From the sequence record PP989839.1: 64,000 nt of DNA. One strand, written 5' to 3'. Position 1 is the stretch's first letter. Each line of letters begins with the position of its first letter. This DNA comes from Escherichia phage VTCCBPA_322. Both the position numbers and the translations under genes were made by a program. Below, in pieces: positions 724-52,802 of the stretch. The notes beneath the pieces are model-generated. The model made no database searches. It was not told where the DNA came from and saw nothing but the letters and a program-made list of their open reading frames with translations.

Positions 724-3021
724 ATGAACGAAATGTTCTCGCAAGGTGGCAAAGGCTCCACTGGTATTCTTACCAATAAGCAAGCTATTGCCCGTCATTT
801 TGGTATTAAGCAATCCGAGGTTCTTTACTTCTCTGTTGGTGCTGTATTAGATGGTTATAAAGTCATTTATGACAAGTCCACTCAAAGGAGTTATTCCTTA
901 CCTGCTGGTATTCCATCTGGCACTACTGCTATTAGTCTAAGCACTGCTGCTGTACTTGTACACTCAGCAGGCAGTGAGGACTTAGGTACTTTGGCTGCTA
1001 CTCGTAAGGAATTTATAACTAAGCAGGAGAACTTTAATACAGGCTTTACTATTAGTACCCATAATGAGCAAGTAGTTACTCCTGGTGGGGTTTACTACTG
1101 GGCAGGGTCTTTACCTAAAGTTGTACCTCCTGGTTCCTCTATTGAGGAAACTGGTGGGGTGAATGCTACTGCATGGGTTAATTCATACTCCAATGCTGTC
1201 TTATGTATTAAGGATTTGCTGACACATCCACAGGGTGGCACAGTTAGTGTGGTTGGTTACATTTCTGGTACGGACTTTGGTGGTGGTGATTTTTACTGGG
1301 ATGCTACTCGTCCACGTAGTAAACATAATGGTATTACAGTATTCAGTCCTACTGTTCCATTTAGTGGTTTATATACGGATATACCGAATTTCCATGCTAA
1401 GGTTGGAGAGACTGCACCTGATGCCAATGGTTGTTGGGTGCGTAAGGACTGTGGTCGTAAAGTTCTAATGTCATGGGGTGGTGTAGATATTTCAGGCACT
1501 CAGCCAATGGATGCCGTAGTAACAAGTATGTGTACTTATGTGCATAATACTCGTCAGATTTTGGATGCTGATGAGAATGCTGTACTTAAGGCAGGGTTTA
1601 CTACCGGTACTCAGACCAAAGATAAGCACAATGTGTTTACCCAAGCTTCTGTAATCTTAGAGGGTAAGTATGTCACCATTCGTGGTAATGGGGCTAAGAT
1701 TGATACATATCACCCTGTCCACAGAGAACGTTCTGTATTTGTTCTTCGTAATGGTGGGTATAACATTTCTGGTTTTAAATGGAATGATGGGTACACTGAC
1801 TTTAGTACTTCCCCTACGGATACCCAGCACAAACAAGGTGAATGGTGGATGGGTATTGTTGCAGATGGTGCAGTTACTTTAGTAGCTGACCACCATGAAG
1901 TAACTGCTTCTCAGGTATTTGTACGAGCAGATGCATTTAATGCTACGGACTGGAATGAAAGAGTAACTGTACGGTATAGTAAGTTTGACTACATTACTAA
2001 CTACTGTTTCCTTAGTCGTAAGCTGAAACATTATGAGTTCAGCTACAATGAGGTTAAACACAATGGCCGTGAGTGGCATACTTATGGGGAAGCATGTGCT
2101 CCAACCACATACACCACACATACTATTATACGTAGTAATAACTTCTTCAATCAGATCGCAGAACAATCCTGTATTACTCCTGGGTCATACCATAAGTCCT
2201 GTCTGATTGTTAATAACCATTGTGAACGCTATCGAGGCATTTTCGTTGAGATTGGTTCTTCCAGTAATATCAGCATTCTGAATAACTACTCTTATTCCAG
2301 TGGTGAAAGGGATAGTTCTCATATCCTACTTGTATCTGGTGGGGTAGATGACGAACCAGAGGGTGGTTTGAATAACTTGTTGATTAACGGTAATGTGTTT
2401 GAGAGTGGACCGTATACGCTGCGGGAGTACAACACTGGTACTCCAGTTCGCAGAGGCATTACATTCTCTAATAACCACATTATTGATTGCCCTATGCCTA
2501 ATATGGGTAATGCTGCTTACCACTCAATGGCATTTACCAATAACTACTGCCAGCCACCAGCAGACTTCCCGTATCTGGTATGGGCAGGTAAGAATCCAAT
2601 TATTGAAGGCAATACTTTTGTTGGTGGGGTTATTCGTGCTAGAGATCTGGGTTATACCATTACTAACCCAATCATTCGTAATAACGTATTCCGTGATGGT
2701 AGTACTGTTCAGACATTCCCTGCATTAATTGATATGACTGACTTTACCCGTTTAGTTGCTGAGGGTAACGATGTAACTAATGCTACCTTTACTCGTGTAA
2801 TTGTTGATCCAGCCAACTGTACTTCGGTCGGGTTTAAACGTATTGGGCAGGCAGAGGGTTTTGAATCTAACCCAGCTACCTTGTATGGTGCTAAACTTAC
2901 GGATGTAATTAATGGTGATATTGTGATGAACAATAACCCAGGTAATGCTGAAGGTGGTTACGCATGGGTATGCGTAAATTCTGGTTCTAAACAATTTGGT
3001 AAAATTGTCGTAGCTGTGTAA
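724..3021 (+). CDS. tailspike / tail fiber with right-handed beta-helix (pectate-lyase-like) domain, putative depolymerase
   Basis: ATG with GAAGAGG RBS; 765 aa; Asn-rich rung segments (NNHCERYRGIFVEIG, NNLLINGNVFESG, FSNNHIIDCP, IRNNVFRDG) typical of parallel beta-helix tailspikes; strong terminator downstream. Confidence 0.65.
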   Translation: MNEMFSQGGKGSTGILTNKQAIARHFGIKQSEVLYFSVGAVLDGYKVIYDKSTQRSYSLPAGIPSGTTAISLSTAAVLVHSAGSEDLGTLAATRKEFITKQENFNTGFTISTHNEQVVTPGGVYYWAGSLPKVVPPGSSIEETGGVNATAWVNSYSNAVLCIKDLLTHPQGGTVSVVGYISGTDFGGGDFYWDATRPRSKHNGITVFSPTVPFSGLYTDIPNFHAKVGETAPDANGCWVRKDCGRKVLMSWGGVDISGTQPMDAVVTSMCTYVHNTRQILDADENAVLKAGFTTGTQTKDKHNVFTQASVILEGKYVTIRGNGAKIDTYHPVHRERSVFVLRNGGYNISGFKWNDGYTDFSTSPTDTQHKQGEWWMGIVADGAVTLVADHHEVTASQVFVRADAFNATDWNERVTVRYSKFDYITNYCFLSRKLKHYEFSYNEVKHNGREWHTYGEACAPTTYTTHTIIRSNNFFNQIAEQSCITPGSYHKSCLIVNNHCERYRGIFVEIGSSSNISILNNYSYSSGERDSSHILLVSGGVDDEPEGGLNNLLINGNVFESGPYTLREYNTGTPVRRGITFSNNHIIDCPMPNMGNAAYHSMAFTNNYCQPPADFPYLVWAGKNPIIEGNTFVGGVIRARDLGYTITNPIIRNNVFRDGSTVQTFPALIDMTDFTRLVAEGNDVTNATFTRVIVDPANCTSVGFKRIGQAEGFESNPATLYGAKLTDVINGDIVMNNNPGNAEGGYAWVCVNSGSKQFGKIVVAV

Positions 3022-8137: not shown

Positions 8138-9358
8138 ATGACTACGGAAGCTGCAACCACAGCTTCCGACATTCTCGCAATGTCGGATGATGAGATTCTG
8201 AATATGGAAGCCCCAGCAGTTATTGCTGAGGAAGATACTTCCACTCAGAACAACCCTGAAACCAACGGCGTACAGACTCCTGATGAAGAAGTTGATCCCT
8301 CTGCTGTTGAAGACCTACCAACCGAAGAAACCTCCCCTGAAACCGAACCAGTTGAAGAAGATGCAGCAAATTCTTTAACTTCTGATAAAGTTGATGATAA
8401 AGTTGTTGACACAGAAGTTGATAGTAACGGTAAGCCGATTACTAAAGCTGAACCTTCTACTACTGAACCAGGCCAGGAACAGAAAGAAGAAGGCAAACAG
8501 TCTGAAGGTCTGCCTGCTGACTTCAACTATAAGGAAGGTTACGAGAAGTTGATGGCTCCTTTTAAAGCTAACGGCAAAATGATTACTCCCCGTTCACCGG
8601 AGGAGGCCATTAGCCTGATGCAGATGGGTGCTAACTATACTCGCAAGATGCAAGAACTTCAGCCGTACCGTAAGGTAATGCTGATGCTACAGAACAACGG
8701 TTTAATGGATGAGGAAAAACTTTCTTTCCTGATTGACCTGGATAAGAAGAATCCTGAAGCCATTAAGAAGTTGCTCAAAGACTCTGGTACAGACCCTCTG
8801 GACTTTAATCCAGATGAGGAAATTAACTACCAGGGTGGCAATTACCGTGTTACCGACACCGAAGCAGATTTTGCAACCGAAATTGACGACTTAAAGTCTA
8901 CTCAAGAAGGACAAGCTACATTAGGTGTTATTGGCTCGACATGGGATGCTGCCAGTAAAGATGCTCTTTATCAGAATCGTGGCTTACTCCACACTATTCA
9001 CGAACAACGTGAGAATGGTATTTATGACACCATTGCTAACGAAGTGAATCGTCTTCAGATGTTAGGCCAGATTCCGGTAGGTACTCCGTTTATTCAGGCT
9101 TATAACTACGTTGGTAATCTCCTTGCACAACAGGGAGCATTTAACCAAGTAGCTAAGCCTGAACCGGTACAAGCAGTTAAACCAGCGGTTCAGCCGGTAG
9201 TGCGTGTAGCACAGCCTAAGCAGACTCTGGCTAACAGTGAGCAAGCTAAAGCAGCTTCCCTTAATCGGGCTGCTACACGCAAAGCAACACCTATTGTAAA
9301 CCCACTCGCCATGAGTGATGAAGATTTCGCTAAACTCCCAGTACCGGGTAGTCTTTAA
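8138..9358 (+). CDS. scaffolding-like protein
   Basis: ATG with GGAGA RBS; 406 aa, very acidic Glu/Asp/Thr/Pro-rich N-terminal half; immediately upstream of major capsid gene. Confidence 0.45.
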   Translation: MTTEAATTASDILAMSDDEILNMEAPAVIAEEDTSTQNNPETNGVQTPDEEVDPSAVEDLPTEETSPETEPVEEDAANSLTSDKVDDKVVDTEVDSNGKPITKAEPSTTEPGQEQKEEGKQSEGLPADFNYKEGYEKLMAPFKANGKMITPRSPEEAISLMQMGANYTRKMQELQPYRKVMLMLQNNGLMDEEKLSFLIDLDKKNPEAIKKLLKDSGTDPLDFNPDEEINYQGGNYRVTDTEADFATEIDDLKSTQEGQATLGVIGSTWDAASKDALYQNRGLLHTIHEQRENGIYDTIANEVNRLQMLGQIPVGTPFIQAYNYVGNLLAQQGAFNQVAKPEPVQAVKPAVQPVVRVAQPKQTLANSEQAKAASLNRAATRKATPIVNPLAMSDEDFAKLPVPGSL

Positions 9359-9374
9359 ACAGGAATAATACGAT

Positions 9375-10577
9375 ATGTTAAACTATAACGCTCCAATTGA
9401 CGGTCAGAAATCTAGCATTGATGGTGCTGGTTCCGACCAGATGAATACCTTTTACTGGCTGAAGAAAGCTATTATTCAGTCTCGTAAAGACCAGTACTTC
9501 ATGCCACTGGCTAACACCATTAACATGCCGAAGAACTACGGTAAGACTGTTAAGGTGTATGAGTACGTTCCTCTGCTCGATGACAAGAACATTAACGATC
9601 AGGGTATTGATGCTAACGGTGCTACCATTGTTAACGGTAACCTGTATGGTTCTTCTAAAGACGTAGGTAACATCACCTCTAAACTGCCTCTTCTGACAGA
9701 GAACGGTGGTCGTGTTAACCGTGTAGGATTTACTCGTCTGTCCCGTGAAGGCTCCATCCATAAATTTGGTTTCTTCTACGAATTTACCCAAGAGTCCCTG
9801 GACTTTGATTCTGATGACCAGCTGAAAGAACACCTGTCTCGTGAACTGATGAACGGTGCTGTACAGCTGACCGAAGCTGTTCTCCAGAAAGACTTGTTGG
9901 CTGCTGCTGGTACTGTACTGTATGCAGGTGCTGCTACCTCCGATGCTACCATCACTGGTGAAGGTTCTACTCCGTCTGTAGTTTCTTATAAGAACCTGAT
10001 GCGTCTTGACCAGATTCTTACTGAGAACCGTACTCCGACTCAGACCACTATTATCACTGGTTCTAAACTGACTGATACCAAAGTATTGGGTGGTACTCGT
10101 GTAATGTACGTTGGTTCTGAACTGGTTCCAGAACTGAAAGCGATGAAAGACCTGTTCGGTAATAAAGCATTCATCGAAATTCAGCACTATGCTGATGCTG
10201 GTACACTGATGAATGGTGAAATCGGTTGTATTGATAAGTTCCGTATTATCCAGGTTCCTGAGATGCTGCATTGGGCAGGTGCTGGTGCTCAAGTTTCTTC
10301 TAACCCGGGTTACCGTACTTCTATGGTATCAGGTCAGGAACACTATGATGTGTTCCCGATGCTGGTAGTTGGTGATGACTCCTTCTCTACCATTGGATTC
10401 CAGACTGATGGTAAGTCTGTTAAGTTCTCCATCATGACTAAGATGCCTGGTAAAGAAACTGCTGACCGTAATGATCCGTATGGCGAGACTGGCTTCAGTT
10501 CTATCAAGTGGTACTACGGTATCCTGGTTAAACGTCCAGAACGTCTGGCTCTGATTAAGACTGTTGCTCCTCTGTAA
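9375..10577 (+). CDS. major capsid protein (N4 gp56-like)
   Basis: ATG with AGGAA RBS; 400 aa; optimal-looking codon usage (ctg/cgt/ggt-rich); follows scaffold-like gene; followed by hairpin terminator. Confidence 0.65.
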
Positions 10578-48455: not shown

Positions 48456-48692
48456 TTACTTACTATTTTCTTCAATGAAACGTCTCATACGCTCCTTTGC
48501 TTCATCATGCTCCTTAATGGCTACATAGTCTCGTGCATAATAATATGCACACCATAAGCCAAGAACGCATGCAGAGAAGCGAGCCACTACGAAGAACATT
48601 TCCTCCAGGCTTTGAGCATTGTGCAATGAAAATACAAATTCCAGAACCAGGATGATACTTATAATCATTGCTTGTATAGCTAGTCGTCTCAT
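48456..48692 (-). CDS. small membrane protein (two predicted TM helices)
   Basis: 78 aa; hydrophobic segments IISIILVLEFVF and ACVLGLWCAYYYA. Confidence 0.5.
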   Translation of the reverse strand: MRRLAIQAMIISIILVLEFVFSLHNAQSLEEMFFVVARFSACVLGLWCAYYYARDYVAIKEHDEAKERMRRFIEENSK

Positions 48693-49633
48693 TCAGTAAT
48701 AGTCTCACCGGGGATTAACTTACGGAATTGGATAAAGTGAAGTAGGTTACCTGAGTACAGATTCCCTTCTTTATCCATGGATGTAACACCTTGTTCCCAT
48801 GTAGCCGGGTTCATGTTATTCACACACTTTTCACCAAGATTCATAGGTGTAGCCTGATGTTCAGTAGGTGAAGCATGAATAGGCTGTTTCTCTACCAACT
48901 TAGCAAACAGGTCAAGGTCATCGCTGATAGTGGATGGCTTACCTTCGAAGTTGTTATAAGAAGCACGGGCACAACGAGCAGCAGAGACTTTAAGCAGCAA
49001 GCCTAAAATTTCTTCATTACTTGGTTCATCACGAGTAATTCGCTGATATTTGCAATGATTGTAAGCATTAGCACAATCAACACTGCGAATATAAGGCAGA
49101 TGCCAGTCACCTTTCTTGAGCTTTTGCGGAACAGATTCTTCATGAGCCTTCTTCATGGCCTGGGCCAGTAAACGAATTTCTGGTTGGGCATCCTCATGGT
49201 CACGTAAGCCATAAAAGTTAGCCCAACTTGTTGAAGTTACCACGACACGGATATGTGTGAATGGTTCCAAGATACGGTTAACAATCTGCTTATGTACTTG
49301 CCCACGTCGTAACTGTTCAGCATACACAGCAGCAGCAGATGCAGCGTTATCCCAGATAAACTTAGCATCCTCAATTTCCATAGGAGTGAGTTCTTCTTCT
49401 GCTTGCATACCCTTCTGGTTCTTGCCCCAGTGACTGGGCATCACTGGTTCATTACGAACTTGTTCGATGAACTTAGCTGTTGGAATAGCACGACTGCTTG
49501 AAGCATTACGGTTAAATACACGGTGGGTCATAAACTCACTGTGGATGAATCGGGGATAAACCAATTCAAAGGTAGTAATACGAGTTCCTGTTTCTGGGTG
49601 AACGGAATCTGCAATGACAGTTGCCTTAATCAT
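48689..49633 (-). CDS. thyX: FAD-dependent thymidylate synthase (ThyX)-like
   Basis: 314 aa; ThyX-like signature THRVFNRNASSSR (RHR-x7-S type); overlapping start/stop with neighbours. Confidence 0.5.
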   Translation of the reverse strand: MIKATVIADSVHPETGTRITTFELVYPRFIHSEFMTHRVFNRNASSSRAIPTAKFIEQVRNEPVMPSHWGKNQKGMQAEEELTPMEIEDAKFIWDNAASAAAVYAEQLRRGQVHKQIVNRILEPFTHIRVVVTSTSWANFYGLRDHEDAQPEIRLLAQAMKKAHEESVPQKLKKGDWHLPYIRSVDCANAYNHCKYQRITRDEPSNEEILGLLLKVSAARCARASYNNFEGKPSTISDDLDLFAKLVEKQPIHASPTEHQATPMNLGEKCVNNMNPATWEQGVTSMDKEGNLYSGNLLHFIQFRKLIPGETITE

Positions 49634-50456: not shown

Positions 50457-50469
50457 AAGAGTACCTGTA

Positions 50470-50499
50470 AATAAAAAAGCCCACGGGTTAAGTGGGCTT
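50470..50499 (-). terminator. intrinsic terminator
   Basis: minus strand AAGCCCAC-loop-GTGGGCTT followed by TTTTTTATTT. Confidence 0.7.
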
Positions 50500-50573
50500 G
50501 GGTTAGGAGATGGATAAGCAATGAGCTGGAAGTAACTTCCACAAGCACCACTATGCAATGATGCTTAGGTTAG

Positions 50574-50816
50574 TTACTCTGCTTTACTACCACCATTGGT
50601 TTGAACAACAGTTACGTTTGTAACTTGGTTCTGACCTTTGTTGGACAGTGACCAAATCAGTGCTACTACCCAGAAGACTAAAGACCAGCCTAATACAATA
50701 TTGAGCACACCAATACCCCACTTGGAGGCATGGCCTCGTGCAAAAGCAATGATAGTAGGGATAAGGTATACAGCTAGTATGAATAAGAAAACAAGGATTG
50801 CTGCTAAAGATTCCAT
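50574..50816 (-). CDS. superinfection-immunity (Imm-like) small membrane protein
   Basis: ATG at 50816 with AGGAA RBS (track start 50852 is GTG); motif PTIIAFARGHASKWGIGVLNIVLGWSLVFWVVALIWS matches Imm-family pattern. Confidence 0.6.
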   Translation of the reverse strand: MESLAAILVFLFILAVYLIPTIIAFARGHASKWGIGVLNIVLGWSLVFWVVALIWSLSNKGQNQVTNVTVVQTNGGSKAE

Positions 50817-50889
50817 GATGGTTCCTATGTGAGGTTGAGTTAGTTTCTTCACAAATAGCCCAACTATGCTGGGCTATTTAGGCAGCTAC

Positions 50890-51090
50890 TTACTCTGCGT
50901 CAGAGACAGCAGTCAAAGCTTTACGGATGTAACCACGCACAGAACGGTAACTTTCTTTTACAGATACTGTTCGCCCATCAATCAGATGAATTACAGCACC
51001 GACTGATGTCTCATCTACGTCTACTACGTTAGTTGCAACAATAGTTTTACGCACGGTACTTCCAACAGGAGTTACTTGAAATACTGACAT
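50890..51090 (-). CDS. small hypothetical protein
   Basis: 66 aa. Confidence 0.4.
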   Translation of the reverse strand: MSVFQVTPVGSTVRKTIVATNVVDVDETSVGAVIHLIDGRTVSVKESYRSVRGYIRKALTAVSDAE

Positions 51091-51120: not shown

Positions 51121-51627
51121 TTATTTTGAAGGTCTAGCAGCTACTGGTTGGTTTTCCTGGTTCTGATACTTGCCATTGTAATTAGCAGGTTCCTGAACCA
51201 GATGAAATAATACTTGAGCTATCCCAGCACCAGCCGGGATATGTAGTTTTTTACGACCATGATAGACCAGTTCAAGGGTAAGATACCCTTTCCATCCTGG
51301 TTCTATTACGGTATTAAACACTGATAATGCACGTCTTGCCCACGTAGACTTATCGTGAACGATAGCTACACAGGAAGGAGACATGTTGAACTTCTCAATT
51401 GCTGAAGCCAAGGTGAACTTACCGAGATGGTGTGATACTTGATTCCCATCAACGACTTTCACCATTGGAATCAACCCAAATAAGCGATAGAAGGTAATAT
51501 CTTGTTTGATACGAATATCGTAACCAGCTTCACCCAATCCATAGCTTACACCATGCTCGGATACCTTGCGGTCTGGGATATCCAGCAACTGAGATGAACG
51601 GTATAGAGAATTACCATTAACAACCAT
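51121..51627 (-). CDS. dCTP deaminase / dUTPase-family protein
   Basis: 168 aa; trimeric dUTPase-superfamily-like motifs VIEPGWKGYLTLEL and GAGIAQVLF. Confidence 0.5.
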   Translation of the reverse strand: MVVNGNSLYRSSQLLDIPDRKVSEHGVSYGLGEAGYDIRIKQDITFYRLFGLIPMVKVVDGNQVSHHLGKFTLASAIEKFNMSPSCVAIVHDKSTWARRALSVFNTVIEPGWKGYLTLELVYHGRKKLHIPAGAGIAQVLFHLVQEPANYNGKYQNQENQPVAARPSK

Positions 51628-52802
51628 TATTTCATTCCTTTAGGGATATGAACTACCTCCCCAAAAGGTACGGTAGCATTGGGATTATTCAGAACACACC
51701 AGATGATAGGAATATCAAATGGTAATTCTTCCATAGGATGAACATACATATCGGAGAATATGATTGCAGCAGTTGGTTTATTCTTAATAATCCAATCACG
51801 TACTGGCACAAGGCTTGTACCACCACGACCAGTAATCTTAATCTCTTCAAAAGTATCTTCTTCAGTGATGTCTATTTCTTCTTGGATAATATCGTCGAAG
51901 GTAATTAGGGACATCTTCTTAGGATTGAACTGGCTCTTAACGTAGGCAACCTCTGAGTTAAATCGCAGAGAGTCTGCACTACTAATAGAACCAGATACAT
52001 CCTCAAAGTAGGCCAAGTGTCGTAAACGTCCTTCATCATCTTCCAGTGAAGGTAGATAAATGTCAGTGTAACGACGGTTAGGTCTGGCCCACGTATAATG
52101 AGTATCATCAATGTCGGTAAAGAAGTTCATCAGAACTTCCTGCCATGGAACCACTGGTTTGAGGAATTGGGTAATAACCTCTTCCATACGACCAGCACCT
52201 TTACCAGGCAATGTTCCACCAGCCATTTTCTGGCTCTGCATTGCACGTACTACGTTGTTGACGACAGCACCCTGGGACTGCCCCGAAGTGGGGGATTTCA
52301 TGTCGCCAGCAAGACCTGCTCCAGCACCCCCTGACGGCTTCTGCCTTTTCTGAGGGTTCTTCATCAAGTCATCGTAGATGTCTTCTTCGACCCACCCTTT
52401 GTATTGTGGGTCTTTGCAAATACCTTCATCAATGCCAGTGAACTTGTAACCATCTTCTTCTAACTGAAGGTTAATGAAGTGGTCACATGCCTGGTTCCAG
52501 ATTTCTGGGTCACGGCTTCCACGACGAATATCGTGTAGGTATGCCACATGCCAAAGTTCATGCATTAATACTGTTTTTCTTGCATCTGGGCACATCCAGA
52601 TGAAGAAATCAGGATTGAAATGGAGTTCTATCCCATCAGTACATGCAGTGGGACAATCCTCACGTTTCCATGAGAACTTAAGACTACATAGTAATGAACC
52701 AAAGAACGCAGCAGACTTGCCTAGGAAAGCCTGAGCTTGAATACGGTCATACTCACGCATGAGTTGTTCATCACTAAGGGAGTGCTGAGGAAATTGGTTC
52801 AT
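51627..52802 (-). CDS. VWA-domain protein with N-terminal HExxH metallopeptidase-like motif (N4 gp25-like)
   Basis: 391 aa; HELWH motif; C-terminal region consistent with von Willebrand A fold; immediately downstream of MoxR-like ATPase. Confidence 0.5.
   Translation of the reverse strand: MNQFPQHSLSDEQLMREYDRIQAQAFLGKSAAFFGSLLCSLKFSWKREDCPTACTDGIELHFNPDFFIWMCPDARKTVLMHELWHVAYLHDIRRGSRDPEIWNQACDHFINLQLEEDGYKFTGIDEGICKDPQYKGWVEEDIYDDLMKNPQKRQKPSGGAGAGLAGDMKSPTSGQSQGAVVNNVVRAMQSQKMAGGTLPGKGAGRMEEVITQFLKPVVPWQEVLMNFFTDIDDTHYTWARPNRRYTDIYLPSLEDDEGRLRHLAYFEDVSGSISSADSLRFNSEVAYVKSQFNPKKMSLITFDDIIQEEIDITEEDTFEEIKITGRGGTSLVPVRDWIIKNKPTAAIIFSDMYVHPMEELPFDIPIIWCVLNNPNATVPFGEVVHIPKGMK

Follow-up and report, generated by a model that had tools for sequence, protein, structure and literature searches.

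The window, meaning the whole stretch of 64,000 nucleotides of Escherichia phage VTCCBPA_322 analysed here, derives from a Gamaleyavirus (G7C-like, N4-like Schitoviridae). Over 6 kb it shares 93% identity with Escherichia phages PBM-2 and PBM-3, and 88–90% with PhAPEC7, ECBP1 and others. One block of its minus strand carries, in this order, the genes for an AAA ATPase, a VWA protein, dCTP deaminase and a 66-residue protein, then the small gene imm, a terminator, gp28/gp29-like genes and the gene for ThyX. The elements of this block on which the analysis bears are as follows.

51121..51627, minus strand: dCTP deaminase gene, a DNA-metabolism neighbour of imm
50890..51090, minus strand: gene for a 66-residue homologue of N4 gp27 (38% identity, full length, E 3e-9; phrog_7594)
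50853..50879, minus strand: strong hairpin between the gp27-like gene and imm, a 12–13-bp stem followed by UUUGUG (-27.7 kcal/mol, z = -4.8)
50823..50826, minus strand: AGGA ribosome-binding site 6 nt 5' of the imm ATG, kept in PhAPEC7, U1G, G7C and Bp4
50574..50816, minus strand: imm, an ATG-to-TAA open reading frame (ORF) of 80 codons plus stop
50646..50771, minus strand: Imm_superinfect core of the imm product (residues 16–57), in which the last part of helix 1 leads through the polar turn ARGHASK to helix 2 with its GW and IW motifs
50500..50573, minus strand: 74-nt 3' untranslated stretch from the imm stop to the terminator, with two further small hairpins
50467..50499, minus strand: intrinsic terminator 3' of imm, an 8-bp GC-rich stem followed by UUUUAUUU, identified by terminator scan and fold
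48689..49633, minus strand: ThyX gene, a DNA-metabolism neighbour of imm

Read directly from the sequence, the imm frame runs on the minus strand from an ATG at 50816..50814 to a TAA at 50576..50574, and its 80-residue translation is MESLAAILVFLFILAVYLIPTIIAFARGHASKWGIGVLNIVLGWSLVFWVVALIWSLSNKGQNQVTNVTVVQTNGGSKAE. Residues 20–56 correspond to PTIIAFARGHASKWGIGVLNIVLGWSLVFWVVALIWS, the motif on which an earlier note had based its assignment of a superinfection-immunity protein to this interval, and the boundaries given there, 50574–50816, are exact. The mechanical ORF list placed the start further upstream, at a GTG at 50852 that would yield 92 residues; this codon lies right next to the upstream hairpin and lacks a ribosome-binding site. 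A methionine, nearly always followed by glutamate, opens all 18 aligned homologues, T4 Imm included, and is equivalent to the window ATG. The 80-residue product was adopted because of both the defects of the GTG and this shared starting point of the homologues. A plus-strand ORF of 64 residues (50638..50832) was also rejected, as it lies antisense to a conserved coding frame under selection.

The gene is flanked by RNA structures that have been retained in the genus. The hairpin 5' of imm is kept in four sister phages, bears the label ‘stem_loop’ in G7C, and is probably a terminator or attenuator of the upstream gene or an RNA-stability element. Its loop reads GCATAGT in the window, PhAPEC7 and U1G and has become the exact reverse complement, ACTATGC, in G7C (L007, about 1443..1459) on identical stems, a difference that is a small loop inversion inside the palindrome. 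The terminator 3' of imm is likewise kept in four sister phages and is annotated as such in PhAPEC7; the fold of the region 50460..50575, which contains it, has a z-score of -3.85. Despite synonymous divergence within imm itself, the intervening untranslated stretch is nearly identical in PhAPEC7, U1G, G7C and Bp4. A sigma-70 promoter scan, which does not cover promoters of the phage RNAPII, returned nothing promoter-like on the minus strand near imm. Middle genes of N4-like phages are transcribed by phage RNAPII, so this outcome has no bearing on whether imm is expressed. Across the 64-kb window, no Rfam family reaches its gathering score and ARAGORN reports no tRNA genes.

The earlier note had described the product as an Imm-like membrane protein with the conserved core of superinfection immunity, and profile searches bear this description out. 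The protein matches the Pfam family PF14373 (Imm_superinfect) with 61.8 bits (E 5.5e-17) against a gathering score of 27.9 bits, and the match spans positions 1–42 of the 42-position model at residues 16–57. It also matches PHROG 1039, ‘immunity to superinfection’, with an E value of 1.1e-29, and has no significant match in NCBIfam. When the six-frame translation of the window is searched with an Imm-family HMM, this frame is the single match (136 bits), the next best candidate scoring 6.3 bits. The product is a small stand-alone protein in which two hydrophobic helical segments are joined by a short polar turn, as in T4 Imm. An AF2 model built from 33 homologues (mean pLDDT 70.9) folds it as a helical hairpin, with helices at residues 2–26 and 30–61 and a disordered tail, and the protein is predicted to reside in the inner membrane. 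A sequence search of the PDB with the window protein gave nothing at E<=10, so the T4 tape measure protein–Imm complex is not detectable by sequence in the PDB copy searched. A Foldseek comparison of the model with BFVD gave chance-level matches only (best E 8.8) and is uninformative, because a helical hairpin of 80 residues at a pLDDT of 71 is too small and too generic.

Phage U1G has exactly the same protein, at 100% identity (QXV71866, labelled hypothetical), and copies from other members of the genus share 93–97% identity with it; in all, 83 homologues were found, mostly of 80–86 residues, many of them on contigs of about 72 kb. The Gamaleyavirus orthologues occupy the same locus, between the gp27-like and the gp28/gp29-like genes, are accompanied by the same hairpins, show 93–100% identity in the core and differ only in the C-terminal tail. 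In G7C the orthologue is gp27.1 (YP_004782154), annotated as ‘immunity to superinfection; similar to Imm of JS98’, and equivalent labels stand in PhAPEC7 (PhAPEC7_26), Bp4 (orf62), ECBP1, E20, Moo19 and EC1-UPM, the wordings used in sister phages being ‘immunity to superinfection’, ‘membrane immunity protein’ and ‘putative superinfection immunity protein’. As these records carry equivalent labels, the annotation is already public. The Imm of G7C-type phages has been recorded both in GenBank/RefSeq and in genome papers, for example that of EC1-UPM in 2013 (PMC3853248). The presence of a T4 Imm homologue in such phages is thus already known, and its annotation here is routine.

Comparison of codons 1–60 of imm among five Gamaleyaviruses gives pairwise dN/dS values of 0.04–0.24 at dS values of up to 0.37, which shows that the gene is under purifying selection. 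Residues 61–80 (50574..50636, minus strand) are polymorphic within the genus, where the membrane core is nearly invariant: the tail occurs in an 80-residue form (window, PhAPEC7 and U1G), an 86-residue form (G7C and Moo19-like phages) and a frameshifted 67-residue form (Bp4). Since the polar tail is free to vary, the pattern fits a protein whose function resides in the membrane core. The variable tail and its frameshift in the 67-residue product of Bp4 might also be read as signs of a chance ORF or of a decaying, non-functional remnant. Such a reading is exceedingly improbable and is effectively refuted by the pattern of conservation, as it is contradicted by the low dN/dS over the core, the conserved ribosome-binding site, the strength of the Pfam match (E 5.5e-17) and a set of homologues that mostly keep to 80–86 residues.

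T4 Imm is the founding, experimentally characterised member of the family. Its sequence (NC_000866, 26373..26624; NP_049660, UniProt P08986) was compared with the window protein to test homology beyond the family name. T4 Imm itself scores 58.2 bits on PF14373, and BLASTP aligns it with residues 1–74 of the 80 of the window protein at 28% identity (E 6e-11), or at 30% identity (E 2e-13) without composition correction. The Kyte–Doolittle profiles of the two proteins (80 residues in the window, 83 in T4) are superimposable, with the same succession of a long N-terminal hydrophobic segment, a polar turn containing R and K, then another hydrophobic segment and finally a polar tail. They share in addition their length class, the ME start, an invariant R in the basic turn and a W in the second hydrophobic segment, and both carriers are virulent coliphages that hold imm among genes of DNA metabolism. 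The two also differ. Helix 1 of the window protein is six residues shorter than that of T4 Imm, and identity is only 28–30%. The neighbours of imm are gp27/gp28-like genes near those for dCTP deaminase and ThyX, whereas in T4 they are genes 42 and 43. Finally, the carrier is an N4-like podovirus that delivers its genome with an ejectosome (gp50/gp51/gp52), whereas T4 has a contractile tail.

A 2026 preprint on T4 indicates which residues matter for activity (bioRxiv 10.64898/2026.03.06.709160). In it, T4 Imm is reported to bind the helical-bundle domain of the tape measure protein gp29 and to co-purify with it, and exclusion is reported to be reduced by the substitutions R33A, in the core, and W50A, in the gp29-facing loop. 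In an alignment of 18 sequences that includes T4 Imm, R33 corresponds to the invariant R27 of the window protein, and W50 corresponds to W44, which is conserved in at least 90% of the sequences. Y17, P20, I23, A24, G28, S31, I35, W49 and W55 are also invariant in this set.

Two proteins from phages outside the genus extend the comparison. The T4-like Klebsiella phage Roth21 encodes a 68-residue protein between DNA polymerase/imm.1-like genes and a gene-42-like gene, that is, at the position of imm in T4, and the identity of this protein is 47% with T4 Imm and 43% with the window protein. ORF82 of AP22, an Obolenskvirus myophage of Acinetobacter, is 54% identical to the window protein. Both are, like the window protein, stand-alone proteins of PF14373 type, 68–70 residues long; they differ from it in having a shorter N-terminal helix and tail, and their carriers are myoviruses with tape measure proteins. 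Because Roth21 bridges the two sides and AP22 ORF82 is closer still, homology with genuine Imm orthologues is solid. On the strength of these alignments, the product of the window ORF is a true homologue of T4 Imm.

Membership of PF14373 extends far beyond such proteins. A profile search over 1.84 billion cluster representatives returns 13,084 clusters at E<=1e-3, and 1,164 under the stricter limit of E<=1e-10; the proteins span 57 to 348 residues, and in the longer members the domain is fused to Mrr-type nuclease (Mrr_cat), TPM (phosphatase)/LemA, SHOCT or zinc-ribbon domains. Such fusions occur among the public homologues P0112–P0229, of which P0113 carries the hairpin twice. As it is fused to so many unrelated domains, the PF14373 hairpin may also be a general membrane module, and Pfam membership alone would be no proof of exclusion. 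The Imm function is favoured here by the stand-alone, T4-like architecture, by the phage context and by the closeness of the protein to positional imm orthologues.

The size and versatility of the family leave room for the gene to act elsewhere in the envelope, with the hairpin as a generic module that would stabilise the membrane against secondary adsorption or would serve lysis timing or lysis inhibition. Lysis inhibition is partly impaired in T4 imm mutants, and a review mentions Imm as holin-like (PMC6832632). N4 itself displays lysis inhibition, a trait that earlier reports connect with superinfection (PMC12642591), and in the window rIIA/rIIB-like genes stand a few kilobases away in the same gene block. 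Nevertheless, we regard a role of this kind as quite unlikely. The gene lies outside the lysis cassette, among genes of DNA metabolism, and is not located where a holin or antiholin would be expected; the holin, endolysin and spanin genes of N4 (gp60–63) belong to the late region and are encoded on the opposite strand. The window protein has the stand-alone size and the architecture of T4 Imm, unlike the fused members of the family, and the lysis-inhibition effects in T4 are secondary to exclusion (PMC6832632).

Imm-type exclusion of secondary phage DNA at the cytoplasmic membrane, by an inner-membrane protein of the infected cell, is the reading that we hold, with moderate confidence. Protection against the entry of superinfecting DNA would follow from homology at about 30% identity. 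The imm product would be made by the Gamaleyavirus during infection and inserted in the cytoplasmic membrane, where it would stop a secondarily adsorbing phage from opening a genome-delivery channel across the inner membrane, and the incoming DNA would thereby be kept out of the cytoplasm. Other small inner-membrane proteins are proposed to prevent an incoming protein from inserting in the membrane or opening a channel, and a parallel between these blockers and T4 Imm has been drawn (bioRxiv 10.64898/2026.03.06.709160); the likeness to Imm is one of mechanism only. The papers searched contain neither an exclusion phenotype nor a functional study of any Gamaleyavirus Imm.

The complete N4 genome holds no Imm-family ORF (best score with the Imm-family HMM, 7.8 bits), and between gp27 and gp28 of N4, where the window has imm, there is a gap of 114 bp. 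Given this absence and the short gap, imm is best described as a genus-specific accessory gene set between conserved neighbours, and because the 66-residue gene upstream is a homologue of gp27, its insertion point is the gp27–gp28 intergenic gap. The PhAPEC7 record states of its gp27-like gene that ‘no similarity found with any gp from N4’, contrary to the N4 gp27 match reported here. For its part, N4 has a gp18 that is annotated as ‘superinfection exclusion, similar to P22 gp17’, and a small membrane protein, gp19 (both at L009, 7668..8263), and neither has a tblastn match in the whole window. The sister genera differ in the candidate genes for exclusion that each possesses.

What the window protein would act upon is less clear from the T4 precedent, as no homologue of T4 gp29 is detectable in the window or in N4 by tblastn or phmmer (best E 1.3–4.6). 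The partner of this Imm would thus be a different protein or one that belongs to another phage. One candidate target is the N4-type ejectosome of related phages, namely gp51 together with the N-terminal region of gp50, the virion RNA polymerase (vRNAP); its blockage would amount to self-exclusion. In N4-like phages gp52 forms the outer-membrane channel and gp51 the periplasmic tunnel of this device, and the C-terminus of gp51 together with the N-terminal domain of gp50 has been proposed to form its inner-membrane complex (PMC13434306). In the window, genes for homologues of gp51 (50% identity) and gp52 (59%) adjoin that for a vRNAP of 3576 residues. A simple Kyte–Doolittle scan of the gp51-, gp52- and gp57-like proteins shows no strongly hydrophobic segment, none in the gp51 or gp52 homologues exceeding 1.6, a result that speaks neither for nor against them as targets. 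A bolder and rather improbable reading is that the Imm fold blocks the inner-membrane channels of phages in general, irrespective of the protein that builds them, and that in this podovirus it binds gp51, the N-terminal domain of gp50 or both; it would then be an exclusion system of N4-like phages and possibly give rise to the periplasmic signal behind their lysis inhibition. For N4, no characterised exclusion system is on record (PMC12642591).

The other candidate targets are the tape measure proteins of competing myoviruses and siphoviruses, which would amount to cross-exclusion. In its strict form this proposal holds that the binding of tape measure proteins has been kept and that the protein acts on competing T-even-like myoviruses or some siphoviruses, whose tape measure proteins insert into the membrane, and not on its own kind. 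In its favour, the carrier has no gp29 homologue through which it could exclude itself by the T4 mechanism, and the closest relatives outside the genus are in myoviruses (AP22 ORF82, 54%; Roth21, 43%). We consider it unlikely. The other carriers, T4-like and Obolenskvirus phages, are consistent with exclusion of their own kind, and the R and W that matter in T4 are conserved across the aligned phage copies and probably mark the fold rather than target specificity.

The locus gains some residual value from the report that T4 Imm acts by binding a tape measure protein; the homologue here is carried by a podovirus with no detectable gp29 homologue. A stand-alone Imm that is present in the sister genus of N4 and absent from N4 itself provides a handle on whether the ejectosome or the tape measure protein of a competitor is recognised. 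Should Gamaleyaviruses indeed exclude T-even phages from co-infected cells, the design of phage cocktails would be affected.

Among minor observations in the window, a gp57-like protein (8138..9358, plus strand) matches phrog_2120, ‘tail length tape measure protein’, with an E value of 5e-147. Its ORF is directly upstream of a 400-residue ORF (9375..10577) placed where N4 has its major head protein gene (gp56), and the gp57-like protein lacks a hydrophobic segment (maximum KD19 0.86) and does not resemble T4 gp29. For a podovirus the tape measure label seems doubtful, and scaffolding is the likelier role. The gp25-like VWA/metallopeptidase gene (51627..52802, minus strand) is intact in the window, encoding 391 residues, and lies in fragments beside an HNH homing endonuclease gene in U1G and Bp4. 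Directly 3' of thyX, a second small hydrophobic protein (48456..48692, minus strand) of 78 residues with two apolar segments matches phrog_12633; for its orthologue in PhAPEC7, the annotation notes that N4 lacks a counterpart.
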